Assembly: GCA_017499595.2 (NCBI GenBank) | Contig: CM038999.1 | Coordinates: 3,906,001 to 3,970,000, forward strand | Direction: 5' to 3' | Source of the DNA: Psilocybe cubensis | Lineage: Eukaryota | Length of the DNA stretch: 64,000 nucleotides | Shown: in pieces, positions 2,613 to 45,117 of the stretch | Position numbering within the stretch: the stretch's first letter is position 1 | How the letters are laid out: the number at the start of each line of letters is the position of its first letter | The notes under the pieces: generated by a model | What the model was told of the DNA's origin: nothing | Databases searched by the model: none | What the model saw: only the letters and a program-made list of their open reading frames with translations | Position numbers and translations under genes: made by a program

Positions 2613-3597
2613 ATTGAGGACAAAATTGGAATAAGTAATCTTGTCCCAAAGAATTGTAAAGCCTGGAAGAATGTAGACAGATGTACACTGCGTTTACTAC
2701 CACTAGTCTACATGATACGTATAATACAATGAACAGAAGCTATCGCTATGTATGCAGCTAGGACCCTTGGCATTTAGCCCAAAGGACGTTCCGTCGGACG
2801 GACAAAAATTTTGAAAATCGACCCCTTAGGACGTTCCAAAACCGGACAAAAATGACTGATTTTGAGCAAAATGTCGTTCCAGAATTCCGGACAGAAAAGT
2901 TGCAGGACCGCCGAGGTCGATCCAAAAACCGGACATATATCGTGATCAACGACCCTCAAAATATAAAGTCATCGGTTAGCGCTGAGCGCTGAGCGTGTAG
3001 TCGCTCCCCGCCCTTTGTATTGTGATACTACGTCGTTGTTTCTAATCTCAATATCGCCTTTTTAGTATTTTGCCCTTAGTAAACCCATAGTTCAAGAGAA
3101 TAAAAAAGGCGATGAAAATGTTTGCAAAGCGAAATTTAAATATTATTACATAGATTTTCTGCATCACTCATTCAATTGTAGTTATGTATTCCTACCATCA
3201 GCTTTTATTCGATTACAGGCATCCACAAAATGGTTCAGAAGTGTCCTAATTGCTGCTGCGCCCGTGAATTTTGTGCCTGTCCGGACACGAATTGGGCCTC
3301 TGGAGGGTCGTTCCCAATTTCCGGACAAACTTCCGAAAAAATTGATAGGTCGTTCTACGGTTGGGGACACGCGAAGACATCAATTTTTATATCTTCTGAA
3401 CGCGAATTTTCTGGAGAAAAGTTCTAGAGAAAACTGATGACAGATTTGAACTCAGACCATTGAAAGGGGAGACCGAATGGATTACTGTGTCCGCGCGTCC
3501 GCCGGACATCCGCCGGACAGACTCACGTGACTACCTCGTCACGTCGCGTCTCAATGTACATTGCCCGCGCTCTCGCCCGCTTTGTATATATACTCAA

Positions 3598-3725
3598 CAA
3601 CCCTAAAAACTAATCCCTAACCCCTAATCCCTAACCCATAATCCCTAACCCCTACACCCAACCCTAAACTACCTAATCCCAACCCTAAACTACCTAATCT
3701 AATTAATTAATTAATCCAACCCTAA
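3598..3725 (+). repeat. Interstitial degenerate telomere-like (CCCTAA)n tract
   Basis: Multiple CCCTAA/CCCTAAT/CCCCTAA variants read directly from the sequence. Confidence 0.8.
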
Positions 3726-3754
3726 GAAATAAAACAAACTGCTAAAATATGTCA

Positions 3755-4203
3755 AGCACTGGAGTGGTGAGATTGAAACTAATAATTCCACCACTGCAGT
3801 GGTATAAGTTATGTAGACAATTTCACCACTTCAGTGGTACAAATCATGTGCACTGTTCTAGCACTTGAGTGATATAAGATACATTCTAAATGTTACCACT
3901 CCAGTGGTGTAGAAATTATAAAAGTAGCAATAATTACTATTCTTAGCATTGTATTTATTCTATCTGACACACAACTATGACCACTGCAGTGGTGGAATAC
4001 AACAAGTCAATTTCAGCACTGAAGTGGCAAACTCCAACATATTAATTTCACCACTTCAGTGCTGATATTAACTTGCTACATTCCACCACTGAAGTGGTCA
4101 TACTTACATGCTGTACTTGATCACTGGAGTGATCAAATTTACATGTCGGATTTGACCACTTCAGTGGTGAAAACTAACATGTCAATTTCACCACCGCGGT
4201 GGT
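3755..4203. repeat. Array of 12 palindromic CACTnnAGTG motifs with an exact 35-bp period
   Basis: Cores start at 3757, 3792, 3827, 3862, 3897, then 3982, 4017, 4052, 4087, 4122, 4157, 4192 (the last is the variant CACCGCGGTG). Confidence 0.9.
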
Positions 4204-4403
4204 CACGTGGATCACGTGCTGTCTGCCGGACGGAGTGTCCGGCGGAAATTATGATTATATTAATCCATTCTATCTGTTGAAAGGAGTTCAAAAATGGTGT
4301 TTTCGTGAAGTTCCCACGAGCGGAAAAAATGGCGAAATTTTTGGCCCAAATTTTTGACATTTATGGCTATGTATTGGAGTTATCTAATCATCGATAAGAG
4401 CAT

Positions 4404-6236
4404 TCACGTGTTGAGAACCGCGTCAATTGACATCATTGCCCGCTGGGATACCTGGCGATGTTGTTTCTGCTTTTTCACAGCCCATATGGCTGCCTGTCCG
4501 GTCAGTCCCAGGCGGTATGCACTCATAAATCTCCATGATCTGTTGATGAACCGTCGAATAACATCAGTTGGACAAGATGCCAAATAGGTTTTCACAGCAT
4601 CTTTTGCCTCCTGGAAGTTTTTCTTTTCTATTTCACGGTAACGATATTTGCACCACCCCCAGTACTAGAAGAGTCAATACAAAACTTTGAATGATATAAA
4701 AATTTGGTACACACTATTTCAATAGGATTAAGTTCACAATGAAATTTAGGAAGGAAGATGCATTCGTGCCCCCGCTCCTTGATAAATGTCTCTAGCCGTG
4801 AAGGTTGATTTTTGAAGTCATCCTGTTGACTGAGAAGCCGTGCCATGTAGCAATTTGTGCTATCAATTGAACACACTGGAGAGCATTTGGCACGTAGATT
4901 AGCAACTTCAAATCCCCGCTCCTCCAATACTTGCTGAAGCCCTTTTGGTTGCCCATTAGATAATGTCATTTTTTGTAATTTTCCACGAAGATTGACCACA
5001 GGATTGGTGTCCGGAATAATTGTGTCCCGCTGAACACGTTGTTTACCACCGTTTGTCTTGTTCATTTCAAACGCTTTGAGTGCGTCATCGGGTAGGGATG
5101 CATGTGCAGAAGATTGATCAAAAATGAAAAGCGCCTGTTTGCCTGGATGTGCAGCTTCAAAAACGTTAACAGCATCTTTCATCTGCATTAGCAGTTGATT
5201 GCAGTCCCACCATGCATCGCCGCCTGTGCCAGGATAAATAATTTTAGTAGAATCACGTACAACATTACCATCCAAATCAAAAAGAATTAGGCGCCCAGTC
5301 TCGGGATTGATAAAAGCAGAGACATGAATCAAGCGGCCACGTCCTTTTTTTCGCAGTGGCTGCTCTCCCGAACAAAGCCATGCACTGTTTGCCATATCAT
5401 TTCCATGGAAAGTGCTCTCGTCGTGAAAATTAGGAATGATTTCCTTTTCTCCGGGGAGAAGTGTAGGTGGCACTCGTATCAAGCCTGAACCATCAGAACT
5501 AGGTTCATATTTTGCCATTCGTTTTTCATATTGAGCCATTAGTGGAAGGAAAACGTTTTGCCTATAATTGACAACATCCGGACGCTCGTGACCATCCATA
5601 TATACCCCTTTTTTAATCTGGGTGTGACGCCAACCAAGTTTGATTAACCATCGACGAATTGTTCGAATGCTGATAGGTTTTTTTTGGTTTGATATCAAGC
5701 TCGGGAAGGATTTGGGTATTGACGGCAACCTGCAGCTTCTTTGGTGTTACTTCTCCGGTCTTTATTGAGTGAAGATAATCCAGTATCCTTTTTTTGACAA
5801 TCTCATCCTTTAGCAATGTGTGTGCATTTCCGTATCCACCCCGCCGCTCAATAGGAAGCTGTTCAAATAATTGGTAGTGGTGCACAAGCTTCCGTACTTT
5901 CCTAGCAAACCAAACACCATCTCCAGAGTGCCATTGTAATGCCAGCATTTTGCTTGCTTCAATACGACGATAGCCTTTGATTCGAAGTGTGGCAAAGTTG
6001 CAAATAATGAGGAGTTTGTTGATTTGAGATAATGAAAGACGTTTTGAGTCTGTACCCTTCTTGATGTCCTCCTGAATCTGGGCTCAAAGAACCTTCCAAT
6101 CCCTAATCTTGACAGGTTGAATAGTCTTGGCCAGTTCCTCTTCCCAATCCTCTATTTGATCATCAGAATCTGGCGGCGGATTATAGTTTTCTGAGTCTGA
6201 TTCTGGATCCGAAATCCGATTAGATATTTCTGTTTC
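4404..6236 (-). pseudogene. 3' part of the outer element's DDE transposase (IS630/Tc1/mariner-like, long D-E spacer)
   Basis: Motifs KKGVYMDGHERPDVV, HDESTF, LRKKGRGR, FDQSSAH, PKFHCELNPIE, then a last exon YWGWCKYRYRE. In-frame TGA at 6084-6086, +1 frameshift in the T8 run at 5678-5685, and interruption by the insertion at 6237. Confidence 0.85.
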
Positions 6237-6632
6237 CACATAAGACAGTTTATTTATAACGTACATTACCTAAGATTTAATAATAAGGATATTACGTGAG
6301 ACACGGTGGATTTACTTCCGCTACCTAATTAGGAGATTAGCGTGATGTACGTGTGATTTAGCCTGGCAAATCATAGCGTACATGACGTGCCATTTAGCGC
6401 TAAATGGAGCCGCCGGGTGGCCTGCGGGATCCGCGCGTCTACCTACACGGAAGAAACACGGGCCGGAAATGAGCCGGACGGGTCCATTTGCATCCCGTGT
6501 ATTGCAAGCAGACGGATCCGCTTGACCCGTGTTGTGCTGTCAGACGGACCCATTTGACCCGTATCTTCCCAGAGAGGGAGGGATATTTGAGAGGTATTGC
6601 GAATCAATGAGCACAAGGGCTCCAAAAATAAT

Positions 6633-8137
6633 TTATTCATCTCTACCGGTATACAAATGCTTTTCCAAACTCGATTCAATCCCTGCCAGCCCAGCGTCAA
6701 TTTCCTCCAGCGCATTATAAGTCAGAATTTCTGACTGCAGCTGATGCAGGCGGAGGTTCTTAAACGTTGTGACCTTGCTGTCATAACTATTGTCGCCGAC
6801 GGAACTGTCGATTATTTGGTCGTATGTTGCCCGTAGCTGCTGCTCGGTATAATTCTAAAATAGTTGTCAGTATCTAGTGCTTGGTAATATCTGAGTGCAT
6901 ACATATAGAAAAGGAGGGTTAAAATATGCCGTCTGATCTGTCACATCCTCGAACTCAATGTCAGACTGGGTGGGAGGCGAACCGGGGTAGCCGCCCATGG
7001 GATCAAACCTGCCGTAGGTTCGAAAATAAGGGTTTTGAAGGAGCAGGTGGCATGCTTCAGGGGGTGGAGAATAGCGACCTTGCTTCCTCTCAGAGGAAAT
7101 AGCTGGACGAGAGTCCATAATGATTTTGTCGACGACAGACGTGTATGAAACATGTGCTGCCATCAACGGCGGAGCCACATCATCCCGGATGACAGGCATA
7201 GGTGGAGGATCCAGGGTATCTGGAATAACAGGCATAGGGGGAGGAGCCAGGGTAGGTGGAATGACAGGCATAGGGGGAGGAGCTAGGTTATCTGGAATGA
7301 TTGGCATTGGCGGCGGAGCCGTGTCGTTCCGGATGACAGGCATTGGCGGCGGAGCCGTGTCGTTCCGGATGACAGGCATTGGCGGCGGAGCCGTGTCGTT
7401 CCGGATGACTGGCATTGGCGGCGGAGCCGTGTCGTTCCGGATGACTGGCATAGGGGGTGGAGCCAGGTTAGCTGGAATGACAGGCATAGGGGGTGGAGCC
7501 AGGTTAGCTGGAATTACTGGCATTGGCGGCGGAGCCAGGTTAGCTGGAATGACAGGCATAGGGGGTGGAGCCAGGTTAGCTGGAATTACTGGCATTGGCG
7601 GCGGAGCCAGGTTAGCTGGAATGACAGGCATAGGGGGTGGAGCCAGGTTAGCTGGAATTACTGGCATTGGCGGCGGAGCCAGGTCTTTCCGGATGACTGG
7701 CATAGGGGGCGGAGCCAGGTTAGATGAAATGACTGGCATAGGGGGAGGAGCCAGGTTATCTGGAATAACAGGCATAGGGGGTGGAGCCAGGTTATCTGGA
7801 ATGACTGGCATTGGCGGCGGAGCCAGGTCATCCGTCCTTGCTGTGCGTTTGCTTTCCTTAGAGTTGCTAATATTTGAAGACATTGCTGATGCTCAGAAAT
7901 CAATTAAAATTTACTTGAATTAATGCCATTAGTCTTACATTTTATAGGTTTTACGGGAGGAGGTTCCTTCAGTTTTTCAAGAAGCCTGGTAAGATTGTTG
8001 AGACTGGTGTAGTCAATGGGGGAATTTTTGCTAGAGGTGGGAATAAAGTTGTAGGAGGACATACAGTCCAGAAAGTGCAACTGGGTGGGCTTGTTTATAT
8101 ATCTCACGGAATACAATACTATCCGAGGATTCTCCAT
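6633..8137 (-). CDS. KDZ cargo protein with ~19 tandem 12-aa proline-rich repeats (xxLAPPPMPVIP)
   Basis: ORFs 7904-8137 and 6867-7883 plus a final exon ending at 6633 join in frame across GT-AG introns. Confidence 0.65.
7160..7830. repeat. Coding 36-bp minisatellite, ~19 units
   Basis: Repeated GGAATGACAGGCATAGGGGGTGGAGCCAGGTTAGCT-like unit, with blocks of subtypes (ANL x6, NDT x4). Confidence 0.95.
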
Positions 8138-8366
8138 GACACGGAAATAGATTCACCCGTGTATCGAACTTAGCAACTTTTGCACAAACTGGATCTGGTG
8201 AAGAAATCACATGACTCAGATTGTACATGTTTGTGTATGGTTTTGTTTTGCGGGACCGCTTTTTTTTAGACTTTTTTTAGACTAACTCCAACCACGATCA
8301 CCACCCCACGTTCTACCGTGCCTCACCCATTAACGCGTCTTCCCCCCCAAAAAAAACGCTTTCCCA

Positions 8367-10938
8367 ATGGCCTCTTCATCTTCCACCACCGCCACCTTCG
8401 CCCAACGCCTTGCTGACTGGGAAAAAACCTTTACAGAGTGCTACCGCAATGGCGAAAGCGCGTTCAACGCTCAGTTGGAGCAGCTCTACAGGGACTTGGT
8501 GAGTAATCGATATCCCTTGAGCATAAGACTTACTGAACAAAAAAAATTCATCCAAATAGGTTCCACTGTGTCAAGAACACGTCAGGGACGCGGCCAACTT
8601 CCGCCTCGTGGATTATGTCGCAAGCCCTGTCGTGTATTCATACAAGACCAGCCAGGGCAAGGACGGCAAGCAGGTAGCAAGGTTCGAGGTCGACTGGGCA
8701 AATTTGCATCATCAAGTCGCAAATTTCAAGGCATACCAGCAAGGCCAGGAGGCACAGAGGAAGAGGAGGGAGGAGGAAGAGCAAGAGAAGAGGAGGGAGA
8801 AGGAGGAGCAAGAGGAGGAGGAGAGGCAGAGGGTGGAGGAGAGGAGGAAGAGGGAGGTGAGGAGGAAGAGGGAGGAGAAGAAGAAGAGGGAGGAGGAAGA
8901 GGAGAGGCAGAGGGAGGAGGAGGAGGAGAGGCAGAGGGAGGAGGAGAGGAGGAAGAGGGAGGAAGAGAAGCAGAAGGTGGAGGAGAGGAGAAAGGATGAG
9001 AGGAGGAAGAGGGAGCAGGAGAGGAGGACCAGGGAGCAGGAGAGGCAGAAGGCGGAGGAGAGGAGGAAGAGGGAGCAGGAGCAGGAGCAGGAGCAGGAGA
9101 CAGACGAGGAGAGGAACAAGGAGGAGACGGAGAAGAGACGGGCCGAGAAGGGCAAGGGCAAGGCAGTCGAACCCCCGGTGGAAGACGGACCCGTGACAGA
9201 CGCCCACAAAGACAAGGGCAAACGGAAAGCGGCGGACCCCGTGGAGTCCATTCAGTTGGCTCCAGCGGATTACAGGGGCCCACGGACAAAGAAGGGGGAA
9301 ATTATTCCCCACATTACCGCCTCCAACATGCCCGGTCACCCAGCGTACAGGGAGAAGCTGGAAAGATTGGCGAAGTCCAAGCAGGGGAAATTCAGGAGCA
9401 AGGCGATCATAGGAAGCCACACGGACGAAGACGCGGACGCGGACGTCGACGAGGACGACGAAGGCGATAACAAAGGGGCACCGCCTACCACCCCCACTGC
9501 CACCCCCACCCGGAAGATGCGCACGCGTTCCGTAAAGAAGGACACCGAGGACGATGTCCCCCCCATCAGGAAGGCGCGGTCGAGATCCCAGAAAGTGCGC
9601 CAGGTGCCAGAGGGGATGGTGGACATGGTGGAAAGGTGCACGGCATGCATCAAATTCAAGGTGCCATGCTATGTCAAGGGGGAGACAGGCACTGAGCCTC
9701 TCGTCCCCGTGAAGCACCAATCTTGCGAGTCTTGCAAGTCTCGCAAGATCCACTGCAGCTTCTACCCGGGGCGCAACACCTTCGTGGGTCAATTTTTGAC
9801 GACGCCACTGGGAAGCTATGGGGAGGCGTTGAAGTTGGAGGAGGGAGAAGATGTTCCGGCGAAGGGGAAGGCCGGGGAAGGGTCGTTCCCCGAGGATGTG
9901 GGAGAACTGCTTGTGCAGCTCTTTGAGCGCCAAGGCAGAATCATGGAACGGCTGGACGGGTTATCCGCGTCCATGACGGCGATTAATGCACGGATTGCGA
10001 CGTTTGCCGAGACGAACTTGGCGGTGGAGAACAGGATGAAGAGCATCGAGGACGGCATCCAAGAGGTGAAGGCCGAATGGACCATGGCCAAAGAACAAGT
10101 GGCAGGAAGCACCTCGCTTTCCGTCACGATGTTCAACGACATCACCAAGAGGATCAACCACGTCCGAGATGTGGTCGACGATTTGCTGGAGCAGGATGAA
10201 CAAAGGAATCCCGCCCCCAAACAGGCAGCAGGACCCTCCAAGACGGAGGTCGAACAAGAATCGGGTCCGTCGCGGACCCGTGAACCCACCTCTGTGCCAC
10301 AATCCCCAAGCGCACCACCACCGCCAGCACCCCTCCCTTCCCCACCTCCACCTCCAGCAGCACCCACTCTCCCTTCCCCTCCTCCACCACCGCCAGCACC
10401 TGTCCTCCCTTCCCCTCCCCCACCTCCACCCGCACCCGTCCTCCCTGCCGTGTCTGCGCCACCAACAGCGCTATTCTTGCCCGGTTCGACTCCGGAAGCG
10501 CCTTCGCCCCCCCCAGCTGGCCGACCCTCGCTCCCACCGGTACCGCCCATCCTTTCCCTGTCTCCACCACCCCCTCTCCCAGCTCCACGTCCTCGAAGTT
10601 CGACGTCAAAGGCCGCACCGTTGTCAAAGGGTGCACCATCGTCAAAGGCCGCGCCATCGTCAAAGGCCGGCCCATCCTCAAAGGCTAAGCCATTGTCAAA
10701 GGCTAAGCCATCCTCCAAGGCTGGGCCATCCGGGAATGGACACTCATCGGAGTTGTCTGAGCCCTCGGACAGCGACGAGGTTGAAATTGTGGAGGAGGAG
10801 GATGTTGAGATCGTGGCGTCCACGCTGCCCGCGTCGAACATAGCCACAAAGACAAGGGCTGGACGAAAGCGAAAGGCGGAAACGACTCTGGCTGAAGCAT
10901 CGCGCTCGCCCAAAAAATCCAAGGCCCAAAAAAAGTAG
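8367..10938 (+). CDS. KDZ cargo protein: E/R/K-rich coiled coil, Zn(II)2Cys6-like cluster, proline-rich tail, basic NLS-like end
   Basis: Exon 1 8367-~8498, intron GTGAGT..TAG, then a long exon; CTACIKFKVPC-x18-CESCKSRKIHC matches CxxCx6C...CxxCx6C; C-terminal RKRK...PKKSK. Confidence 0.75.
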
Positions 10939-11216
10939 TGTATTTCAATTCTTTGTAACTTTTTTTTGGTCTCCTTTTTTGCCTGTCATATATTACATTG
11001 CTCACATCCCTATACAATTTTTTCATCATTTGGACTGTATATAGTTTTTACTCTCATGTGCTCATCTGTTTTATACCTCTCCCAAAAAGTAGCACTTGAT
11101 GATTTTTAATGAACCCCGCTTTCTGTTTTGATTTTGTGTGAAAACATGTTTGAGAAACATCAAGATAAGAATAAAAAGCATCACATTCAATAGGTATCAT
11201 GAATCTACTTCAACAG

Positions 11217-13527
11217 CTAGGCTTTCAAAGTTTTTTTTCTTTGTCTTTTACCTGCTACAGCAAGCAGACTTGCTTCCTGAAGTGCTAAGGCATCCGAAGT
11301 CACATTCCTGCGGGCCCGTGTTTCATCCGTATCTGGACTTGTTACTGTCTCCACAAAGGCATCACAAGTCACGTCCCTGCCGGCCCGTGTATTATCCGTG
11401 TCTTGGGTTGTTCCTGTTTGGACTCCATCTTCTTCCACTGTGTCAAGTAGATCTGAGTAGGGCTTTGTTCTTTTCCTAGGTTGAATCCTTCTAGTTGGTT
11501 TTGGCTTAACTGGGGGGGGTACAGAACTCTCTTCATCGGGTCCGTCCATTTCCGCCGTTCCGACATATGGCTTTGTTCTTTTTCTTGGCATAATCTTTCT
11601 AGCTGGCTTGGGAGGCGCCTCCTCAACCTCTGGAGTTGGGCTGGATGATGGATTGACAATTGTTGGGCTGGATCTACTTGGTAGAGAGGGTGGCTCGCTA
11701 GATCTTGAAGGTGCGTCGGTAGGAGTCTCATCCGTCTCTGGCGTGACTTCAAATCTGGCAGTAGTGCGTGGCATCGCGGATGCCGGACTGCCCCGTCCAT
11801 TATCAAACTCTGACAGATTGGATGATTCAGAGTCGCTTGAAGATTGGGTTTGAAGTCGTATAGCTTTTTGCCTCAGCCGACGTTTGGTTATGGCTGCAGG
11901 AGGTGGAGGTATCGGGTGGGCTTCTAGGCCGTCAAACAAGTTGGACGGATAGAGAGGTTCCATAATGTCATAGCCATTTCCAAAAACCTTTGAGAATTTA
12001 AAGGGGATGTCTCCTTGCGCTTGACGGTCCCTCCATAGCTTGAGAATTGCAGAAGTTGACTCCAGGCGGAGCCGGCTCGGATCCGTCACGGGGATTGAAC
12101 TTGGCCAATACTCTGGATCAATCATTTCTGCAGAACGCCTTTCAAGAGCATCCCAAGGAACACTTGAACCAGGCCTATCCTTGGCTAAAGCTGTATACAT
12201 AGTTAGCAAGTTTGTTGAGGACATAGACAAATTACACACCATAAACCTTGTTCATGTAAATTCTAATAATTGACTTTTGCGCATAAGCGACTTCTCTCCC
12301 AGTTGAGCCATAGATAGGACTAGGTACTATTGGAAATCCATTGCTGCTAAACTTGAGGGATTTTTCATGAAACGATGCATCTGGCAGTGCTGGATTGGCC
12401 ACACCCTTCTCTATTTCTGAAATGTGGACGAGGTATTGAACAAACGCTCTGCGAAAAGCGGCCAACTCGGATGGAAAGAGTTGCCCAAAGGAAGGAATTC
12501 TGACATCGTCGAGTGCTAGATCGCTTGTCTGGGTCCTTCAATGCCCATCAGTCAACATTAATACGGGCCAAATTATTCCGCCGTGAATGCTTACGGCGGA
12601 AACTTTATCCGCCGTAAACACCCTACGGCGGATAAAGTTTCCGCCGTAAGCATTCACGGCGGAACTTGTTCATGCCGTGTTTAACACTTACATTGAGTAT
12701 TCGATTTTACCCTCAATATCATAATGCCCCTCAAAGGTAATGGACCTCATACCCATTCTCTGCCACTTAAGTTTCTCCATTTGTCGAAGTATTTTTCTGC
12801 CTTGCCTGGCAGCAGTCCTGCAGATGTCAGATTGACGGCGGAAACAAGTTCCACCGACTCACTTTGCCTTCATTGATTTTGAAACACCTTTCTTATTCCA
12901 TTCCTCGAGGATCTCCATGAACCTGTCCCGCTCCTCCTGAGTCAATCTGGCCTCAACCTGCTTACGTCCTTGTTGATAAAACTTCATCCAATCTTTACTT
13001 CCACGAGCAGCATTCCCTGATAGAAGCGCAACCTCGGAGTCAATCTCTGCCGACTTCTCCTCACGGAATACCGTCTGAAAGGTTATACGGGAGTTCAATC
13101 CTTCCAATTTTACACCAATTCGATTTGACGCATGGTTTCTAAACCAATTAAAAATTCGCTATTGTGATGGTTTATGTGTGTAACAAAATTTTCAAAGAAA
13201 CAACGAGCTCACATGCTTCTTCACCTTCCATTCTTTGTGTAGTTGCTTATCTTCCTTCCTAGCACGTCTAGAGTATCTGTGATCCCATGTAGCTTGCAGC
13301 TCAGGTATGACAGTGTTCTGTATGTAGTCTGCTTTGGATGACTTTGATGTATCTTTGTAGGGCTGTACATGCTTTTTCAACACGCGCATTTCCTTTGTGG
13401 TCCATATATTTGATTCTTCCGGCGGAAAGTCACCCTCCGCCGTCTGTCCGCTTCTGGGTCCGTTGTGGGTTGTGGCATTTGCGGTGGAAGGAAGCGGATC
13501 CGCGTCGGGGGATGCATTGGTGGGCAT
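11217..13527 (-). CDS. KDZ cargo protein with divergent HMG-like / helix-turn-helix (WFxN) segments, multi-exon
   Basis: Exons correspond to ORFs 13192-13527, 12859-13107, 12232-12465 and 11217-12242; RIFNWFRNH and FYQQGRKQVEARLTQEERDRFMEILEEWNK resemble the divergent HMG genes known beside fungal TET/JBP-KDZ loci. Confidence 0.6.
12576..12664. repeat. Perfect intronic palindrome, 41-bp arms with a 7-nt loop
   Basis: TTCCGCCGTGAATGCTTACGGCGGAAACTTTATCCGCCGTA-aacaccc-exact reverse complement. Confidence 0.95.
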
Positions 13528-14406
13528 AATTGCAGCGATGTAACAAGTAGCTTATCGATGAGTATCTGTGTGATCTAGTCAAATCTCACGTCATACGGAG
13601 ATAAAATAAGCTTCCGATCATACTAAATGAATGATGTGATGTCATATTTTTCCCAATCAGGTAATCCCGCTTCATCGTCGGCCACGATGATCAAAGCATG
13701 CTGGTCGCTGTCACATACATTGACCTCATGATTTTGCAATAGTTCCCTCTGCACTCAATCAATAAACATGAAATTTTGTAAACATTTAGCGCTTTATATA
13801 AAGATAATCTTACAAGGTTTTAAATTCTTGTTAGATGGCTGTAAAGATACAGAAACACAAAATTCAAATTCACGTCTTCTCACCCAAAACTTGTGAAACC
13901 CAAAACGGCAGTCATCTCAGAGACCATGAGAGGTATTCAAATGCATAATTTTTTTCAAAAAATATAATGATCCCAGTGAGCTCATTTTGACACATTTTCT
14001 AGTATATTGAGAATATCTCCTTAAATACGAGGATTCACATTCTACAAAAAATGTCATTCGGTAGCTATTAAAAATATCTTTCATATGATATACGCCGGAG
14101 GAATGAGGGGCCAGCCAGTGAAAAGATATTTCAAAAACACTCCAAAGTGTGGTTCTGAAAGGGTCGTTCTGCATCATATTGTACATTTATGATGGGATCA
14201 CGTCCATTTTGTGCATCTCTGGATTAAGTTTTGTTCATAACATTTCACTCACTCATCCAAATATGCTGCAAGATAGATCATATGAAAGCTATTTTTCTCC
14301 TCTTTAAAACGGCATAATTGAGGGAAATTTATCTACAGAAATAAACATGTTATACTACATTTAGATCTGCGCTCACAGGCTGTCAGACTCTTTGTTTCCA
14401 ACATCC

Positions 14407-17400
14407 ATGGGCTTCAAGAAAGTACCTGATAGGGGATCGGATGAGGAGTTTCCCAATGTTCGGGAGGCCTCCTGGTCTAGTGGGGCCAAGAAACGAAAGA
14501 GAGGGCGGCCGAGGATCCACAAACTTCCTGCAGAATCATCATCAACAAACCTCCCTCAAACAACGACTTACTCTTTCCAAAACCATGAACACAACATTCT
14601 GGAAGAAGAAATACCTCATTATCCGGGAGATCTAACTGATCAGCAGGTACTTGATAACCTGAGACAGCTAGATGACGACAGAACGGGAGGAAAGGTATGT
14701 TTTAACATGTTTTCAGTAGAATGATCAGGATGACTTTACCTATCCAGTCTCAAAATGATTACCTGAGGGAATGGCTCCCGAAACGAGAGGTGTATCTTGG
14801 AACAATGATTGGAGGAGAAGCCCCGGATCCGGATCTGAATGGACGGTGTCAGCAATGTCAAGGAATGTCTGGAGTGTGGAGATGTTGCCAATGCTTTGGC
14901 TCTAGAATTTTGTGTTCTGAATGCCTGCGAAGAAACCATCAATTTACACCTTTCCACCGCGTTGAGAAGTGGACGGGTCTATATTTCCGTCCGGGAGCTC
15001 TGTGGGAAGTGGGTGTCAAGTTGTATTTGGGTCATAATGGGAAGCGGTGTCCTTATCCCACGGATCCGAGCCATCTAGGATGCGACGGCGGAAACAATTC
15101 ATCCGGGAGTCATGGGCACGGCGGAAACAATTCGCCCATCTTTGAGGATGAACACGGATTGGACCTGGATCCGCTTCCTGCGAGCAATGACCAAGAATCC
15201 TTTACGGCTCAGCTTCTGGCGGACCCGGAGGTACCCCATTTGGTTGAGCTGGACGATGGAGACGATGAAGACGATGATCTATTCGAGGAAGTCGATACAA
15301 CCTATCTGGACCAACCTCGTCCAAAGGCAGCAGACAACAATGGAATTCCTTTCAAGGCAATTGTGCACACCTCCGGAGTCCATTATCTGCCCGTGCGAAC
15401 ATGCACATGCCGGTCCGTCCGCCTTCCGTCTATCGATTTACAGTATCTGGAGATGGGATTATTTGCAGCCAGCTTTGAAAACGTTCAAACTGTGTTCACA
15501 GTTGAGGTCCTTGAGGACTTTCGGATGGACAACCTCGAGTGCAAAACGTCGGCTTATCAGTATTACCAAAAGTTGCGAAGACTGACTTCGCCAGCGTTTC
15601 CAAAAAAGGTGCTGAACCGCTATCGTGAATTGAGAAGGCTTAGTAGAGAATACAGGGACCTTGTCCTGAGACGACAATACGGAGAAGGGCATACAAGAGA
15701 AGCGGTGGTCCCTTACTATCATCATTGCCATGATTCATCACCAGAGAGGATGGGTATTAATGTATCTGATCCAATTGACGGCGGATCTGATAGTCCGTCT
15801 CAAGAAGTCGGAACGTCAACGGACCCGTCTCTGGGACACGGCGGATTAGATGGTCCGCCTGCACCACAAATGACGCGGACCGAGGATCATCCCAAAGTTG
15901 AAGATAGGAGAGGGAAGTTGGCCTTATTCTGCCCCGCCTGTCCACAGCCTGGAATAAACCTACCTGATACCTGGATTGATGATGCTGACAGGCAAGTTTT
16001 AGTTATTCTTCAAGGGTGACTGCAATTAACAGCAAATAGCAATCTGTACATACGTAGTTATGTTGCAGATGGTAATTTCAAAGCAGATCACCTCAATCAG
16101 AAAAACGAGGGAGACGATGTTTGGTTGAGCGTTGGAGAAGGATACATGACTGCTCCGGGCCCATACAAGGAGCACATCAAGGAAGCAATTTCTCTTGCTC
16201 CACGTTATAAACGGGTGCGTTATCTACCATGATTTATCTTTCACGGCGGATGCTTACGTTCCGTGTCACAATCTTCCACGGCGGATGCTTCCCTTCCGTG
16301 TCAAAAAAATCTTCCACGGCGGATGGCTTATCCTCCGTGTAAAAAAATATCAGGAACAAACATGTCATAACTACCACGCCCAGAAAGCTGAAAACAGAGT
16401 CAGCCCGGGTAAGAGAGTACGTGGAATTGGGGCACACACTTGCGCTAGGCACGGATGCTTCTGTCCATCCAGCGTTGTCGATTTTGACAAAGGCGAAAAG
16501 CAGATGCACATGGATTGGTCTTTGACTCAGGCCAGGGAAACTACCAACACACAGGGAATCACAAAACATTTGGAAATCTACGATATAAACTGTCAATATT
16601 GCGTTAACTTGGCAAGGCGTCTCTCAGAGTCCACAAAAATGCATTGGCCACCTTCTGTTAAAATGATTTTTGCAATTGGTTTATTTCACGTCCACGGGCA
16701 CAAGACGGAATGTCTTTACAACTACGCATCCACCTATGTCCCGGGTGTGGGAATCATTGACGGAGAAATCCTGGAGCCGTTGTGGTCCGTGTTAAATGAC
16801 ACATCCCGGAGTACACGTTCCGCTACCACTGCCCATCGAGCAGAGGTTTTGGACGACCACATGGGGGATTCCAACTGGAAGAAGACCATTAATATGGCTG
16901 CAACAATTGCTGCAAAGTTCAAACGGGCACGGGAACAGTCCGGAATCACAGACCGATTTTATAGGGGTATCACGGATCAACAAGATTCCGGGCTCATCAA
17001 CACTTGGGAAGATGAAATTTCAAAAGCAGAAGCGGACCGAGAACAAGGTGTGGCCGACGCTGTTGGCAAGGTAATGGCAAGCAAAGTGAAAACGGCCGCT
17101 GGACGCCAAGAAATTGAATTGCATCTTTCAAATATGGAACTTACATCTAATGGTGCTACTGGAAAGGCAGCATGGATATCATCCGGCTTAAAACTGGAGC
17201 AAGCGCAGTACGATTATTTCAATTGCATCCTACAGAATTTAACATGCTTTTAGATTGGAGCTCAGGGACCATGTCAGAAAGCTCGGAAAGCATCCTTCCA
17301 CCGCGCAGAAACTTGACTTGGTCAATAAACGTCGCTCCATGCGGACCCGCGTTGAAGCCTTCTGTCGATCCGCTATGACCTTCATGGGCGAAGATGTCTT

Positions 17401-18329
17401 GGAGGATATTCAAGGGGACATCGCTCCCATACTTGACTATGAAGTCAGTGACAACGACGATCCTGATCTTGGAAATGTCAACATTACCCGCGCGGATCCG
17501 GAACGACAGCCGCTTCCGTTTCCCTCCGCCGTCAAACAAGATTTCTTTGACGGCCTTGACGCGGGAACAAACCTCATTTTAAAAGGGCTTCGCAAACTTG
17601 AACTTCAAATAAGACATGGCCACGCAGAGGACTGTCTGGAAGCGGTCCGGTCAGCCTTGATCCAGCTTTCTTGGCAGTATAAATATCAGGTTCGGACCGC
17701 CGACTCCGTCTATATGGGGACTCGTGCTTGGGATGGCGTCAAGCTTTTGAATGCTTCCTGGAAATTGCACCGGCGACTCTACAACACAAACCGTCAGAAG
17801 ATGATCTATTTATCTGCTGGCGTGCGAGACGAGGATAATATTCGGAAACAATATCCCATTCTGCAAGTCCATGATTGCAAGCATAGTAATGCCGTGTCGG
17901 ATCCGAACATTCGCGGAGGAAGCTCGGACCGTCTAAGTTGGATTTGGAGATCCCGTCAGGGCCTGGACAATGATAATCAATTATACGTTAATGAGTGTGA
18001 GTACTGCTATTTGTATTTCTAATTTTTTTCTCAAGGGCTTCTTAGTCTTTAGGCTAAACTGGCTCCGCGCGCGAGCTCAGAGGAATAGATGGCAAGAGGA
18101 GCTGGCCTTGACAAAAAAGGAAATGGAATGGACTGTCAGATTTTATGTGTATATGGCAAAGACATGGCGTGCACGGCATGATTTTGTTCCTGACAGGTTA
18201 GTTGGTCACAGGGCAAATGCTCAAAAGCAGATTGCCATGTGGAATGATCTGGGGCGGGCCGCGGATAAGGTCTTCCGTCAAATTAACCCGGAGTATCCGT
18301 CCGTGTGGAGATTTATAATTACAGATTAA
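14407..18329 (+). CDS. KDZ transposase with a CxC2-like cysteine cluster (multi-exon)
   Basis: CxxC...CxxC..H..PFHRVEKW, VHTSGVH..C.C, LFCPACPQPGINLP, DGNFKADH, CARHG, DFDKGE, YDINCQY, FHVHGH...C, DGEILEPLWS, and C-terminal WLRARAQRNRWQEE; exons appear to join in frame. Confidence 0.92.
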
Positions 18330-18373
18330 CCAGTTCTTTGAACATTCTTGTTGTATCCCATCTCGTTGAATTC

Positions 18374-19998
18374 ATGCACTTACCGCGGCTTTTTAAACCT
18401 CCTGTCGAGGACGAACATCATCTCCTTACCTATGATGAGCGACGTGCTCTGGCCAAAGTTCATGTCCATATTTGTGGTGCACGGATCCGTGCCGGATACC
18501 GTTTGTTCATTGCAAACGGAGACTCTGTTTCCTCCGTGCGTCGCCAAAAATGGATGTATTTGCTCGACCTGGAGGTGGTAAGACAGTAATTTTGAACGAT
18601 TATATCTTGTATTGAGAACTGGTCGTCAGGCTATACTGCTGAGAGTACTCGGATACTGCTATGTCAATGGATTCCAAGTCGATATTCCATTTTTTATATC
18701 AGAAATTCTCAATCAGAGCGTACATGCCGTTTTGAACCGAACTCCCCACCATCGAGCTGTTCTATTTGAATCTCTAAATCAAAGCTGGTCAGCATGGGAA
18801 GATGATGAAATTTTAAATCAGACCAAGAGCTGGGGATATTGGTGGAGGGACGGATTTGCTGAAGGCGATGAGTGGCAAGTTGCCTTTGTTACCGTTGAAT
18901 CGCAAGCAAGAGAATTTTGGAACAAGGTATGTTTTTTTATTGCTGTGGATTATATCTGATTTGCGTCCTTCCCACCAGGTGGTTCTGCCTGAATACCAAC
19001 AAGAGGTACTCCGGCTAAATAATCAGAGGAAAGAAGCTAAGGAGGGCGCAAGTTCATCTACCTCTGGGCCTCCAAGAAATCAGGAAAACAATCCCAAGGG
19101 CAAGGGAAAGGCGGCTGAACGGACATCCGTCCCCACCTCGGGGAAGCACGGATCCGCGTTGACGGGAAAGCACGGCTCCGTGTTTTCACCGCCCACGGGG
19201 AAACCCAATCCGCCGACCCGTGTTGCAAACACGCGGGATGAAACATCCCCAATTGCAATTTCTGACCACAGACCGCCCTACTGTCCCCGCTGCGGTCAGC
19301 CTATCCTAACGGGCGTAATGAGGGAGTTGGCTCACCTGCGCCGGAATGTGGCGGACAAAATGAAAAATGCCCATAAAGCAGTGACTACTTCTTCGGCCGC
19401 CTTGGGCAGATATTCTGTATTGGAGAAGATGTGGATTGACTCTAAGGAGCACCCGTTCTCTAACGGCAAGGGGCTTTCAGCCAAATACAAATTTCAGCAT
19501 CCCGTTCACCCTTCTCCTGACAGTTGGGGCGCTATAACGGCTCAAGCCCGGTCCTTCGAGGTCTCAAAGCTCAAAGTCGCTTCATTTTACATCAACGACA
19601 TTTTTTATTCTTTTATTGCCGTCAAGGAACTACCTTTTCATCCACTCTGGTATCATTCGCCACCCTCCAACACTGCAAATATTCATCTCCCAACAGATAC
19701 TCTGCCTACTCCCGGTTCCGTCAGCCCTCCGTCAAATGCACACACCAGCAATGCCTTCCTTTTTAACGCAAGGTCAAGACCTGTTTTCCCGGGAGAAGAG
19801 GATGATATTGATAGTACGTCCGATACCACTGAATCCTCTACACCAGCTACGTTTTTAGAGCATCTCGCACAGGACTTTGAAGAGGAGGCGGATGTGGAGT
19901 CTTCCGCCGGTGATACGACGGAGGAGTCAGATGCTTCCGGTAACTCGGAAGAGCTTAGCGAGGACGTGTCGGAAACACCCTGGGATGAGGAATCTTAG
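18374..19998 (+). CDS. KDZ cargo protein of unknown function with an acidic C-terminus
   Basis: ORFs 18305-18589, 18612-18959 and 18856-19998 can be linked by short introns; contains a CPRCG motif and a D/E-rich tail. Confidence 0.55.
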
Positions 19999-20225
19999 TT
20001 GCCCACCTCTCGCACAGGACATCGAAGAGGAGGCGGATGATGCCTTTTCCGCCGGTAATACGACGGCGGAGTCCGATGATTCCGGTAACCTTGGAAGAGC
20101 TCAGCGCGGGCGCGTCGGAAACACCCTGGGACAGAGAATTCTGGTTGTTCTGTAGCTTTCGTACCGTTTTGTTTTGGAAATATAAAAAAATCTTCCCCAA
20201 ACCCAACTTCCAAGTCAAAAACTGA

Positions 20226-21505
20226 TCATATTTCAAAATCAAAAGTGTTGGTGGCCGGTAAATTTGCAAAAAGATCGTACGTAGTAGACCATCCCGCCTC
20301 TTGGACTCCCAGCTCTTTAAATACATTCCTACGCATGTAATAGACTATGACTGCCCTATCTCCCTCGCACACCGCGCCGTGTTGAAGCAACCTGCCGGTA
20401 ATTGCAACAAGGGTCATGGGATCATACTTGTACCGAAGTCCAAGGCCAGGAAGCTCAAGCCGTCCGTGTTCACCCTTCCCAAGTGGCATCAAAAAATCGT
20501 ACCATGAGTAGCATGACCCATTATCCCGATGGTACGGTGTATCTCGGTTGCTGATGGCGGTCATGACTCCAAAGGGCGAACTCCATATTGTGAGAATTTG
20601 CTTCAATATTTCGGCCTTATGGACGAACTCCGGTTCCGCAGCAAGCCGTTGAAGAAATTTTATTCCCGCCCGGTACTGCTCGGGGTGTATAATGCTCAAG
20701 ATGGCTCCCAGCAAAGCCGAAGATGTCATCATGTCTCGTATAAACTCCTGTCCAATAGGATTACACAAGTCCAAGGAGACCTCAAGCGGGTTGGACGTCT
20801 GAGGAAAATATGAGGCAGTATAATACTTAGCAAACAAGTTTCTCACCTCATGGCCTTGCTGAAACCATGCCGGGGAAAAGTTAAGATTTCCAGGTTGAAG
20901 CCAACCTGGCTCATGTCGAAAGTAACTGTCATTGACCCTCCAGCTTGTGGCCAAAGGTGCCGCCTTGTGAATCATTGTTTCAATATCCCGTAATGAATTC
21001 CACACACTCTCCTGTTACTCTTTAGAACGCATAATATAGGAATTAATCGGTCCGTTTCTAAAACTCACCACCCTTGTCTCTGACAAAATACCTGGCAGGT
21101 ACCACACCAATATGTTGCCTGCACTATCGATTACAGTTCCGGGCAGGGTTTGGTACTGTAACGTGGAATGCACCGGAGGAAACTGGTCTTTCAGGCGAGC
21201 CTCAACGGCAGAATTCTGACCCGTGCAACGTGCGCTGAGATGGGTCAAATATTCTTCTGCATCCCACGTCGTATATTCTGCCATTCACACATTATTTAAT
21301 CTCAATTTTCAAAGCTTATTGATTGCATACCTTGATTTTCAAATGCCTGCAAAATCACCTCCACAGCTAGATTGCACTCAAACATGGTCTCAGCACTGAA
21401 GTTTTCCCGGATTTGATTAGGCAGTTCTGCATGCCAAAGACGACTAGCTATCTTTGCCTTCATGTAGTTTGAGAGGGATTGGGTTAGCTCAAAGGCATAA
21501 TCCAT
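20226..21505 (-). CDS. TET/JBP-family 2-oxoglutarate/Fe(II) DNA dioxygenase
   Basis: Four exons join in frame; TPYHRDNG (HxD), LLQHG (distal His) and DRAVIVYYMR (2OG-binding Arg), plus ILVWYLPGIL and FSPAWFQQGH; sits inside a KDZ element, the known context of fungal TET/JBP genes. Confidence 0.88.
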
Positions 21506-21948
21506 ACTATCAGGGTATGTGGAAAGAAATTTGCTGCCAGTATAATCTATACACCTTATTACATATATTAACGGTCATCCAATGTACGATTCAAGGCGGA
21601 TATTTGTCGGAATACAGAAGCGGATGGATGAATGGGTCCGTCTGACAGCACAACACGGGTCAAGCGGATCCGTCTGCTTGCAATACACGGGATGCAAATG
21701 GACCCGTCCGGCTCATTTCCGGCCCGTGTTTCTTCCGTGTAGGTAGACGCGCGGATCCCGCAGGCCACCCGGCGGCTCCATTTAGCGCTAAATGGCACGT
21801 CATGTACGCTATGATTTGCCAGGCTAAATCACACGTACATCACGCTAATCTCCTAATTAGGTAGCGGAAGTAAATCCACCGTGTCTCACGTAATATCCTT
21901 ATTATTAAATCTTAGGTAATGTACGTTATAAATAAACTGTCTTATGTG

Positions 21949-22772
21949 CTGTTTCTATTTGTTGATCAAATATACTATTGTTGTTTTTGTCATTGACTGT
22001 TTCTTCATAGATTTCGGACTCCGGTACAGGTGTATCTTCTTGCAACGGCAACCCAGATGTTTCCAAAATCTCAATTGACGAGTTGGACCTTAAATCAGGC
22101 TCGATTGTTTCATGAGATGAAGTACTGCGCTTGGATGCCTTTCGCATTTGGGGTACAATTGGCGTGCTGGGACCAGGTGAGTGAATTGGCATATTGAGAT
22201 ATCGATCAAGATTTGACTGATTCCGTATTAATTCTTTATGGTCTCTCTGAGTACGAGCAGGCTTGCTCATAATATTGGGCCCCTTTTGGTAAACCTTCGG
22301 TCGACCTATTGAATATTGACCATTGTTAAATTAATATGTTATAGCGATTGTAACCTTTCCACACACCTTTTTTCACTGCTTGTTTTCCTTGAACCATAAC
22401 ACGAAGTTTGTATGGTAGCCACTCCATATCATTCTCCTTTTCTTTGATGTCCCAATATTGCTTGGCCAATCGCTTTTTGAACTCGGCATTCATGAACCCC
22501 TTCCAGTCTGTATCAATTCCATCATTTTCATCATCCAATTCGAGATCGGATTCAGATTCCGAGTCAGACAGGCCCTTCTCACTACTAGCTTCCTCTTTGA
22601 GCTTGTATAGGGGTTTCTTTTTGTTGATGGTTGTCCGATCCCATTGATAAGACTGTGATGTAGATGATGTACTTGGAGGATTGCTATCTGTAGGCTTTGA
22701 TTCACTGGATCCTTGATTCCGTAGACCTGATATATTTCTTTTCTTCTTTGCTGGCCTTCCTTTAGGTGGCAT
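21949..22772 (-). pseudogene. 5' part of the outer element's transposase gene
   Basis: MPPKGRPAKKKRNISGLRNQ..., intron, GRPKVYQKGPNIMSKPARTQR...IFDQQIET; joins in frame to ETEISNRISD at ~6236 when the inner element and one TSD copy are removed. Confidence 0.85.
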
Positions 22773-23994
22773 TTTGTCGAATTTTTTTTGAGGAAACGGC
22801 TCGATAAAAGTTTTTGAAAATTTAGAATCAGATGTAGCTCTTTGAGAACTATCCAAAAATGATATTTCCGAGATTTTAGCGAATTGTTTTGGATTTGGCA
22901 AAATTTTTGGGCCTATCTAAACTTAGAACCAGATTTCCGAGGGAAGTTTTTATGCAAACAAAAAACTAATTGCATATTCTGATTTGCATTCTCATTCTGC
23001 ACGTTTCTATCTATAATACATGGTAGCAGAAAAAAGTTGATGTCTTCGCGTGTCCCCAACTATATATCCGGACAAAAATTTTCAAAATCGCTGAAAATCG
23101 GGTCGGACAAAAATCCCAGAAATCGACTTTTTTTGGGAACGTCCTTTGGGCTAAATGCCAAGGGTCCTATGCAGCTTAGGCCTTTGGCGGCCCAACTCAT
23201 TCCAATCAAGTTCTCTTCCGACGCGTCCTCTTCGCGTTCGACTCCAGCGTCGATCACGTGATCTCTCGATTTCGAGTCACTTTTCGACCCGCCGCCAAAG
23301 CCCTACGCAAACCACAAAGATTCGTGTCACCACGGATTCATCCACTCAGATATCCATCATTTCTCTCAACATATAATATTTCTGACTTTCTCCTATCTCA
23401 CAGAATTTCATTCGAGCGTTATTAGCTTATCCTGGTCCAGGACTGGGTTTGCTGAGGACAACTCATTGCCACATTTTGCGACCGATTTGCATCGTGCATC
23501 TTGACTCAAGATTCATTACATCCTAACGTCGCCAACCAGCCTTTCAAGGACGAAGCGTAGAAGCTTCTCTTTAAAGACCAAAATAGCATGCATTGTACCT
23601 AGATTTCTGAATCTTTTGCTTCACTACCCAAGTACGCTTGATTTACTTGTCTACACCCGTCTCACAAAAGTCTCACAAAGAACAAAGCAGACGGAACCTG
23701 CAGTGAGCACACAGAGGAAGCCTGAGGGAAAATCAAATCGACATGTTTCACAGGAACAACATAACAAGAGTTGGCGGTTGGTTCGAATTGGACCTGTTTT
23801 GAACGACGGCATTAATTTCCCCTCAGGACATCTAAGTAAGTTTCAAGCCATTCAACTAGGTCAAGTATTCCATTAACGTCAACTTAAAGCTTTCCGCGTA
23901 CAACGTGAAAAACGTCAATTGATTGTGCTTCTGCACAAGTATACCAACGCGTCCTCGGGAACCCCCCTCTATCTCCTACCTCCGAAGGACCTCC

Positions 23995-35693: not shown

Positions 35694-35848
35694 AGTTCGT
35701 TCGAATTTCAGTCTCGCACATACTATATCATATTATGAACGATTGTTGTAGATCTAGCGGTTGTCTCGGCATTCCACATTACCTCCTCCGTTAATTTTAT
35801 TCTTGACTGGTTTCTAACTGTGGCGTATAGACAAATATTTCCAGTGAT

Positions 35849-38800: not shown

Positions 38801-39605
38801 AGTCGCTACTTCTGCGAGCTTCCTGAACCATAACCAGCGATCAATTAGGGGAAAGGTTCCAAATTCTGCCGCAACTTTCAACACCAGTGTAGCCCATTCA
38901 ATGTCTTGCAAGTTCCCTGATTGCTGACAACGTTCCGTTAGTGCACGTCCAAGGCTCTTCAGTCGTTCCACCTATAAGGTCGTTAATTATCAAACCGGTA
39001 CATAACAAATTCCCAGAACACACCGATGTCAAACACCTGAGACGTCCGGAATCTACATCGGGCGGTTGGTCTTGCCAAGCCCACCGAACGATATCAGGTT
39101 TTACGTATTCCAACAAGTCTTTCGATAGCTGGGGCCAGTAGTGTGTAGTGGTGCCTCCTTTGAAAATAATAAATGTAATAGATTGTCTTGTCTTTAGTTC
39201 AACGCTGATTCCCTTTTACACGATTTAACGAATTGTTGTCAATGGAGTGAGCAAACTCTTACATTTGGGGCGACTTCACCGTGAAATTGAATTTGAAAGC
39301 CGTATCTAGATAGATCATTGCTCCTGAAGAGAGTTGAAAGGTCATATCGCAGGAGAATGGTAGAGACCTACTTCATAGCGTCAACTGTCAAGAACATCGA
39401 AGTTTTTGTGACCTTGTAATCGAGCGTAGAATGAATTATTCCCGGAAGATCAACTGTTAGATATATAAAACCCTGTAATCGATGGTTTAGGCCAAAAGAA
39501 TAAGCATGCAACTTGTGGTAATTTGTAGAGTCGACACACATTTCCACTGGCAGTAGAATGGCCACCCTGTGCCCATAAAACTGAGGGGACTCTGACACCG
39601 GCCAT
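35849..39605 (-). CDS. p23-like (CS) domain + TPR-like repeats + CHAT protease, copy 1 (apparently intact)
   Basis: Start MAGVRVPSVLWAQG; IYLTVDLPGI; YWPQL..KPDIVRW; repeated LxNLGxSY..RF..GD..DI..AI; CHAT motifs WWCPSGPLSFLPLHAAG, HFACHG, LAACQTG, WVPYVHFG. Confidence 0.85.
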
Positions 39606-44359: not shown

Positions 44360-45117
44360 GACATGTGGAGGTTCAACGTGGAGGTCCTGAAGTATTCTCT
44401 TTGCGAAGGAATGAATGCAATGCTGGCAAAACTAGGTGATGAACATGGCCTTGTTTATCGATCTCCAGGATGGAAAGCAAGAGAACAGAATGAAAACGAG
44501 AAGCACGTCGCTTACTTAGTAGGTTGAGGCCGGCTTGGTTAACTGATGCTCGATAGATCCGCAAGTAGGCTCGTTGCGCTTGTTGAGTTTCTGACTAATT
44601 TTTATTTTTTCGAAGTCCGCTGGGTCTGAGACCGAACTTGGAGGTCCGAATAAAGCTCGCGTGATGTTTTCCGGCCAAGCAACAACTTGCCAACAAACAA
44701 CCAACAACGCTATTTACGTGGAATCAACATGGAATCCTTGACGTCTATCATGATTAAACCTTGGACCCAAAGCAAGGGGTCTATATGAAAAATGTTTGAA
44801 GATTGGGAGCATCATCAAGTATTATCTGATTATTTACTTCGAAGTACCCGGCGAACTGGTATGAGAGACTGCTTTGGTGAGCTAGCTGAATGCTTTCAAA
44901 ACTACAATATAAGTGTAAGCTCACGCTCCATATTATGTCTCCATTGGCAGACAGATAGTATCCGAAGCTACCTTCCGCGGTAAGTGGTCCAAAAATGATA
45001 TAACAACAACTGATAACGACAGTAGACAACGTAAAGATTTAAACACGGCAAAAATTGATTAAAGACAGGAGAGTCAACAGCAGTTTGTTCAAAGAATTGT
45101 CTTAAATTGGGGTGTAC

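Follow-up and report, generated by a model that had tools for sequence, protein, structure and literature searches.

Element-wide inverted CGG pairs in a TET-carrying KDZ transposon of Psilocybe cubensis and a candidate system of self-recognition

A 64,000-nucleotide stretch of the Psilocybe cubensis genome (assembly GCA_017499595.2, contig CM038999.1, positions 3,906,001 to 3,970,000; hereafter the window, whose coordinates are used throughout) contains a 15,712-bp KDZ transposon at 6237..21948. The element encodes six predicted genes (G1 to G6), among them a KDZ transposase, a TET/JBP dioxygenase and a protein with a Zn2Cys6-like cluster. From end to end it is strewn with inverted pairs of CGG triplets, which, judging from their sequence statistics, are very probably protein-binding sites kept by selection. 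The features of the locus are listed below (TIR, terminal inverted repeat; TSD, target-site duplication).

6230..6236, unstranded: left TSD, CTGTTTC, found as a single copy at a paralogous empty site
6237..21948, unstranded: element-wide inverted CGG pairs, CGG-N(11-15)-CCG (105 sites) and CGG-N2-CCG
6237..6554, plus strand: left TIR, 318 bp, beginning CACATAAG, rich in CGG pairs
6633..7883, minus strand: G1, 400 residues, 2 predicted exons, with a 12-residue proline-rich tandem repeat and a conserved C-terminal domain
8329..8709, unstranded: patch of subfamily-B sequence in this A-type copy, 71 sites
8367..10938, plus strand: G2, 836 residues, 2 predicted exons, with a Glu/Arg-rich stretch, a Zn2Cys6-like cluster, a coiled coil and a proline-rich tail
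9637..9756, plus strand: Zn2Cys6-like cluster of G2, C-x2-C-x6-C-x18-C-x2-C-x6-C, from alignment
11217..13527, minus strand: G3, 668 residues, 5 predicted exons, with a disordered tail
12576..12664, unstranded: 41-bp perfect inverted repeat of ACGGCGGA units in intron 3 of G3
14407..18329, plus strand: G4, KDZ transposase with a CxC2 domain, 1195 residues, 6 predicted exons, one GC-AG intron
16215..16353, plus strand: intron 3 of G4, with three CGG-pair repeats containing ACGGCGGA
18374..19998, plus strand: G5, 506 residues, 3 predicted exons, starting 44 nt past the transposase stop
20226..21505, minus strand: G6, AG-type TET/JBP dioxygenase, 373 residues, 4 predicted exons
21631..21948, minus strand: right TIR, 318 bp
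21949..21955, unstranded: right TSD, CTGTTTC
2759..23169, minus strand: interrupted Tc1/IS630-like host element, context outside the KDZ unit, with a 34-bp terminal inverted repeat and a DDE_3-like transposase

Ends, copies and genes of the element

The two arms (6237-6554 and 21631-21948) are complementary at 318 of 318 bases, with the first mismatch at base 319, and the element runs from CACATAAG to CTTATGTG, ends of the 5'-CA..TG-3' type. Its insertion splits the transposase gene of the Tc1/IS630-like host (Pfam DDE_3, E 5.6e-6, below the cut-off). A paralogue of this host elsewhere in the genome, 98.9% alike on either side, lacks the insertion and carries CTGTTTC once, and this empty site fixes both the ends of the KDZ element and its TSD. 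An earlier reading of the sequence alone (the sequence-only reading) had proposed mismatch-free 318-bp TIRs and a 7-bp TSD, and both are confirmed. A candidate orthologous empty site in runs X1 and X2 was rejected: the junction is empty but carries the alleles of the paralogous host copy and is therefore not independent evidence. Three of the four other flanks in X1 and X2 are absent from the loci examined, a lead that may point to strain-specific insertions.

Searches with the TIR, which scored 40/55 candidates each and give lower bounds on copy number, returned 14 TIR pairs at 99-100% identity (subfamily A, including the window copy) and 7 at about 95% (subfamily B), as well as one solo B end and one older copy (C). 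At least 21 full-length A and B copies align over the entire 15.7 kb. All of them carry the TET, and no cargo-less copy was seen among them. A sister family, D (three near-identical copies, about 68% nucleotide identity, TIR of about 255 bp, 7-bp TSD), and an older relative, E, contain all six genes in the same order. The view that these ends delimit a mobile unit with its whole cargo was thus upheld by the full-length copies and by family D. A 7-bp TSD flanks 13 of 14 A, all 7 B and all 4 D/E copies, and the A and B duplications are all different: the element duplicates 7 bp without target preference. Among metagenome relatives (15 clusters), three contigs reach a TET downstream of the transposase and four reach a G5 homologue.

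The element is intact and has recently multiplied. All six frames are open, with no nested insertion, in 10 of the 21 copies, and the TET is open in 20 of 21; some of the G2 frameshifts, lying in low-complexity stretches, may be errors. The window copy is separated from the copy closest to it by 5 differences in 5,900 core bases, and its private substitutions number 4 in about 14 kb (range among copies 3-44), in keeping with the youth that the sequence-only reading had claimed. Perfect TIRs carry less weight for that claim. As a clock they are weak, since variants pass from one TIR of a copy to the other: a three-base variant occupies both ends in four copies and one end in two. TIR identity is partly homogenisation, and the copies are mosaics that exchange patches, the window copy with its B patch included.

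Two further copies are irregular. One is full-length but has no TSD (C11:2926575-2942142), and one B copy (C5:2368556) ends after about 6.4 kb with a single TIR, which suggests rearrangement between copies. Three A copies contain long terminal repeat (LTR) retrotransposons (L052/L053, L054/L055 and L058/L059), two of them about 11.4 kb long (1.63-kb LTRs, 99.4-99.9% alike). The third, of about 6.2 kb, has identical 450-bp LTRs and contains 1 CpG in about 6.4 kb.

The six spliced gene models (introns predicted, GT/GC-AG, 45-156 nt) translate without stops, so the intact frames claimed from sequence alone stand as predicted models. The claimed transposase and dioxygenase are likewise borne out by Pfam. 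G4 matches CxC2 (PF18803, E 1.4e-21) and KDZ (PF18758, E 1.2e-37), both over the cut-off, and G6 matches Tet_JBP (E 3.1e-19). D521, D646 and E707/E710 are candidate catalytic residues of G4. In G6, which also matches CcTet (7vpn, E 6.4e-23), residues H273, D275, H323 and R331 correspond to the HxD motif, the distal His and the Arg. S278 and D284 occupy the positions of G331 and D337 in CcTET, and these positions (Gly/Ser and Asp) have been linked to activity on N6-methyladenine (6mA) and 5-methylcytosine (5mC) (PMC12730594). Neither G1 nor G5 matched a Pfam family. Residues 245-391 of G1 are 59% identical to family D, and a word search for G5 homologues found only ones from the same species.

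Public gene models agree with ours in part: one has the same length as G3, and those of G2 and G5 start identically. G4 and G5 are fused in one public annotation (P0156, 1691 residues), and G5 is separate in another (P0155). Since the G4 stop and the G5 start are both conserved in families D and E, six separate genes are favoured. When one A copy is compared with one B copy, the ratio of nonsynonymous to synonymous substitution rates lies at 0.07-0.32 in the six genes, which are thus all under purifying selection; in the comparison of A with D, synonymous sites have reached saturation in five of the six.

Taken together, this is almost certainly a Kyakuja-type KDZ cut-and-paste DNA transposon. 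It very probably belongs to the Kyakuja lineage itself, judged by its 7-bp TSD, its CA..TG ends and an AG-type TET with HxD..H and the equivalents of Gly/Ser331 and Asp337. Complete TET-bearing Kyakuja elements with 7-bp TSDs and CA..TG ends were described by Kojima 2025, who proposed an escape from methylation (PMC12730594). Those of Agaricomycetes (Kyakuja-1_LB, Kyakuja-2_LB and others) share with the P. cubensis element the KDZ transposase, the TSD length, the end type, an agaric host and an AG-type TET near CcTET with Ser/Gly and Asp at 331/337. The two Laccaria families, Kyakuja-1_LB and Kyakuja-2_LB, are reported without TIRs, a statement made for them and not for the whole lineage (PMC12730594); with its 318-bp TIRs, the P. 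cubensis element therefore belongs to neither. Zisupton elements also combine a KDZ transposase and TIRs with, in Auriculariales, an AG-type TET, and Dileera, whose TET-bearing members are reported from rusts, shares the KDZ transposase. Both lineages make 8-bp TSDs, whereas 20 of the 21 P. cubensis copies have 7 bp. Genome-wide there are 96 KDZ profile matches, some of them two exons of one gene, and several families occur in identical multiple copies.

Inverted CGG pairs and a putative reader

CGG-N(11-15)-CCG occurs 105 times in the 15.7-kb element and 27 times in the other 48.3 kb of the window. Site density is 8-21 per 2 kb inside the element and 0-3 outside, with sharp limits at the element ends; the two TIRs together hold 13 sites. 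CGG ranks top of the 64 triplets in both A and D. After tandem repeats were masked, pairs with spacers of 11-14 bp numbered 51 against 11.8 expected in A, 82 against 10.1 in D and 36 against 4.3 in E; none of 7 other KDZ stretches and none of 7 controls was enriched. The sequences flanking the triplets are family-specific: A has 19 occurrences of ACGGCGGA and D none, whereas D has 11 of CGGCGGCA and A none. By k-mer counts, ACGGCGGA is found 19 times inside the element and twice outside.

The excess extends into coding sequence, where observed pairs numbered 21 against 3.2 expected for a spacer of 2, 16 against 3.5 for 12, 16 against 3.2 for 13 and 12 against 3.3 for 14; each of these counts was reached by none of 500 synonymous-codon shuffles. 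The pattern also persists in D although synonymous sites between A and D are saturated in most genes. A and D can be aligned over 7.3 kb, where D shares 15 of the 30 A sites, a sign of both retention and turnover. Half-sites of A are retained in D at 34 of 87 when paired versus 35 of 132 when lone (p 0.055), and in the reverse comparison at 43 of 90 versus 26 of 83 (p 0.03). Differences between A and B strike 3 of 65 paired versus 16 of 110 lone half-sites (p 0.046). The bases beside the triplets show no complementarity, and with no stem pairing beyond the triplets a hairpin reading is ruled out. The two spacings lie about one helical turn apart, which would suit a dimer on duplex DNA.

The encoded protein best matched to such sites is G2. 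In its Zn2Cys6-like cluster, six Cys and two Lys are invariant in five aligned rows (A, B, D, E); one Lys sits four residues past the second Cys, and a long helix follows the cluster. We take this Lys to hold the place of Gal4 Lys18. The Gal4 residue contacts CGG, and Zn2Cys6 dimers read CGG pairs (PMC6265462). The Pfam match to Zn_clus (E 0.005; 17.3 and 18.8 bits against a cut-off of 21) is below the cut-off. Foldseek ranks 1-14 are all Zn2Cys6 domains, at weak E-values of 0.27-2.7 and with a model whose mean predicted local distance difference test score is 62.5. With Gal4-type factors (Gal4, Put3, Leu3, Ppr1, Hap1, Pho7), G2 shares the six-Cys pattern, the Lys position, a downstream coiled coil and CGG pairs as a candidate target. 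It differs in having 18-24 residues between Cys3 and Cys4 and a linker of about 45 residues to the coiled coil, in being encoded by a transposon, and in candidate sites that span the whole element and not a promoter. On this likeness, G2 is probably the reader of the CGG pairs.

G3 may be a second DNA-binding protein. Its model, confident over residues 44-430, contains folds that are homeodomain-like (about 39-122, matching the HNF1 type), HMG-box-like (about 125-196) and GTF2I-repeat-like (about 296-428), all with weak matches (Z 4.5-7.2), and Foldseek gave none at E 0.001. Residues 125-196 align to several HMG structures (Z 4.5-5.4). G3 has 280 relatives at E 0.001; HMG_box_2 was found in 6 of 64 homologues (best E 2e-4), and G3 itself matched no Pfam family. 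The predicted structure makes the HMG label plausible. An atlas search returned nothing for G2 at 0.9, and for exon 2 of G3 it returned unnamed clusters at 0.94-0.95, of low recognition value. The hairpin in intron 3 of G3 (12576-12664) is variable: among 23 sequences, 5 have its 7-nt loop in one orientation and 15 in the opposite one, while 3 have lost the hairpin by deletion.

Other KDZ elements were compared in 10 of about 80 KDZ loci and one partial stretch. In three other stretches that carry a Zn2Cys6 pattern, the top-ranking hexamers are of the GTCGG type (p 1e-9 to 1e-14), in monomeric form; in three stretches that lack the pattern they are not. In these Zn2Cys6-negative families (one of 12.4 kb and two others), no TET was found by tblastn or by Pfam (61 long frames), although short exons may hide one. 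The 12.4-kb family (L122/L123, C4) has an excess of TGGATA-type hexamers (24 versus 7.8, p 1e-5.6), possibly another motif. In the metagenome relatives, CGG-N(11-15)-CCG is not enriched in 15 cluster representatives. A pooled spectrum of 16 of the 29 contigs, left after near-duplicates were removed, shows everted CCG-N(0-1)-CGG (108 versus 18.2) and inverted CGG-N(3-4)-CCG (75 versus 18.2), picked post hoc as the two best of 1,280 triplet/spacer classes.

A candidate self-recognition barcode and its rivals

The reading that best accounts for these observations overall, to which we give a probability of roughly 0.5, is that the CGG pairs form a self-recognition barcode analogous to the VANC/VANDAL system, with the TET as the likely effector. 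By what is known of their families, G4 would cut at the CAC..GTG ends and reinsert the unit, and G6 would oxidise 5mC, and probably 6mA too, as CcTET does. G2 would dimerise by its coiled coil, reached through a long linker, and bind the inverted CGG pairs. Any expressed copy could then recognise its own family in cis and in trans, with G2 dimers coating the copies. Copies so marked would be reopened, with the TET as the probable eraser and the multi-domain G3 as a further DNA-binding helper. Whether the CGG-pair/G2 system serves anti-silencing stands at about even odds. That it physically steers the TET is doubtful, and the strictest version, sequence-addressed demethylation in which G2, as reader of the barcode, recruits the TET of the element to cognate copies and to no others, is a tentative proposal that we consider unlikely.

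In VANDAL elements of Arabidopsis (PMC5735166, PMC10398659), short family-specific motifs likewise run through the element, dense in introns and ends, and a transposon-encoded protein is involved. The transposase superfamily and the reader differ. The P. cubensis element is further set apart by motifs that are spaced CGG pairs, lie also in exons and share the unit with a TET. Binding and demethylation were shown for VANC (PMC5735166), while for the P. cubensis element they are inferred. The class of TET-bearing Kyakuja elements, the 7-bp TSD and the anti-silencing idea are already known; the CGG-pair pattern is unreported in the literature searched. Zinc clusters, HMG, CGG, binding sites and Psilocybe go unmentioned in the main text of PMC12730594, and its supplement or Iyer et al. 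2014 may list Kyakuja elements with TIRs, zinc-cluster cargo or the family.

The mutation record does not support the earlier suggestion that the TET counters host methylation silencing. Among private substitutions, from which those common to the old C copy were excluded, 252 of 298 are C>T, 164 of them at CpG. The ratio of CpG to other transitions is 15.0 in Kyakuja (7 pairs), 13.3 in TET-less Gypsy elements (6 pairs), 30.7 in one Tc1-like pair and 2.6-3.0 in host duplicates. CpG transitions thus affect TET-carrying copies as they do transposons without a TET, and this proxy, which is blind to a short demethylation window, reveals no lasting protection. By the same proxy, Kyakuja copies appear to bear the mark of methylation like other repeats. 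Because copies still accumulate CpG mutations, any effect of the TET would have to be transient or stage-limited. CpGs in or near the motifs mutate at 0.82-1.22 of the context-corrected expectation, revealing no local protection, and paired and lone sites are hit alike (46 of 349 versus 50 of 350). An apparent dip in CpG mutation near the motifs vanished after correction for the 5' base.

These transitions have a context of their own. In A and B copies, C>T at CpG is about three times commoner after T (106 of 231 TCG half-sites versus 151 of 1,061 others, p 5e-24). The odds ratio for TCG is 2.5 in Gypsy, 5.5 in the Tc1-like pair, 3.6 between D and E and 0.83 in a host gene duplicate. In Horns et al. 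2012, TpCpG hypermutation is reported for Pucciniomycotina, while three Agaricomycotina gave no clear case; TCG was nonetheless the top context in 4 of their 11 Agaricomycotina alignments (PMC3318451).

The unprotected CpGs weigh against the barcode reading, as do several further points. The spacer range of 11-15 is looser than that of Gal4. The domain matches of G2 and G3 all fall below formal thresholds, and the retention tests are borderline (p 0.03-0.07) and share data. The Zn2Cys6-positive KDZ stretches fall into about two clades and do not count as five independent cases; for two of them the limits are guesses, and a partial Zn2Cys6-positive stretch (J) shows no CGG signal. The 29 metagenome contigs showed no zinc cluster, but they are short and for the most part do not cover the region of G2. 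Finally, work cited in PMC12730594 found oxidised 5mC over retrotransposons as well, and that paper suggests untargeted action.

This last point also favours an alternative that we rate as possible but below even odds, in which G2 binds the pairs only as a transcription activator or as a scaffold of the transposition complex, and the TET acts untargeted across repeats. The absence of mutational protection at or near the sites fits it equally, as does a site density that is highest in TIRs (20.4 per kb) and introns (17.8) and lower in exons (4.9). Against it, the two divergent promoter regions are nearly free of sites, with 2 in 483 bp and 1 in 879 bp, and 51 sites fall in exons across the element, a distribution unlike an upstream activating sequence or a subterminal array. 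A different protein might instead read the pairs, namely G3, a zinc-cluster factor of the host that the element exploits, or the transposase by way of its CxC2 region. In favour of this, G3 shows three folds of DNA-binding-like type, the metagenome contigs with CGG pairs yielded no G2, and binding by G2 is itself putative. Pair geometry nevertheless varies by lineage (N11-15 with N2; everted N0-1 with N3-4; monomeric GTCGG), which suits a reader evolving with the element, and the three CxC2-KDZ families without the zinc-cluster pattern are also without CGG motifs; a reader other than G2 is improbable.

It is far less probable still that the pairs are a functionless by-product of amino-acid composition, tandem duplication, hairpins or biased mutation, an explanation largely refuted by the codon shuffles. 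Some sites do lie in local duplications (the G1 repeat and two introns), and TCG-biased decay leaves other CpG contexts relatively enriched. Yet the signal survives repeat masking as well as codon shuffling, is specific in spacer and orientation, involves no pairing of stems and reappears in unrelated contigs at different spacings.

Surroundings of the element and significance

Outside the KDZ unit, the Tc1-like host carries an insertion of about 810 bp (3468-4277) that is absent from the host paralogue and has an 8-bp direct repeat on either side. It holds CCCTAA-like and 35-bp palindromic repeats, and at least part of it has a 98% copy at locus L083:9487-9901. A 699-bp element at 57556-58254 has 47-bp terminal inverted repeats beginning TAGGGACC that resemble the ends of the Tc1-like host. 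Three related genes, which we take to be TPR-plus-CHAT-like, lie at 35800-44400 and 56400-61950. Two of them are in a large inverted duplication (77-97% identity) that surrounds a gene at 49905-53564, presumably NACHT-WD40-like. A search of Rfam over 2700-23200 gave 0 matches.

Experimental validation of what transposon-borne TETs do in fungi is stated to be lacking (PMC12730594). How a transposon TET could favour its own family is the question that the barcode and its putative reader make directly testable. The mushroom can be cultivated, and the 10 of 21 copies whose frames are all open could serve for a first assay of KDZ transposition. Even a barcode that served only transcription or end-joining would be a case of selection for binding sites within coding sequence throughout an entire transposon. 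If the strictest version, sequence-addressed demethylation, is true, reader, eraser and address would share one mobile unit, making the element a counterpart of VANC/VANDAL in fungi.

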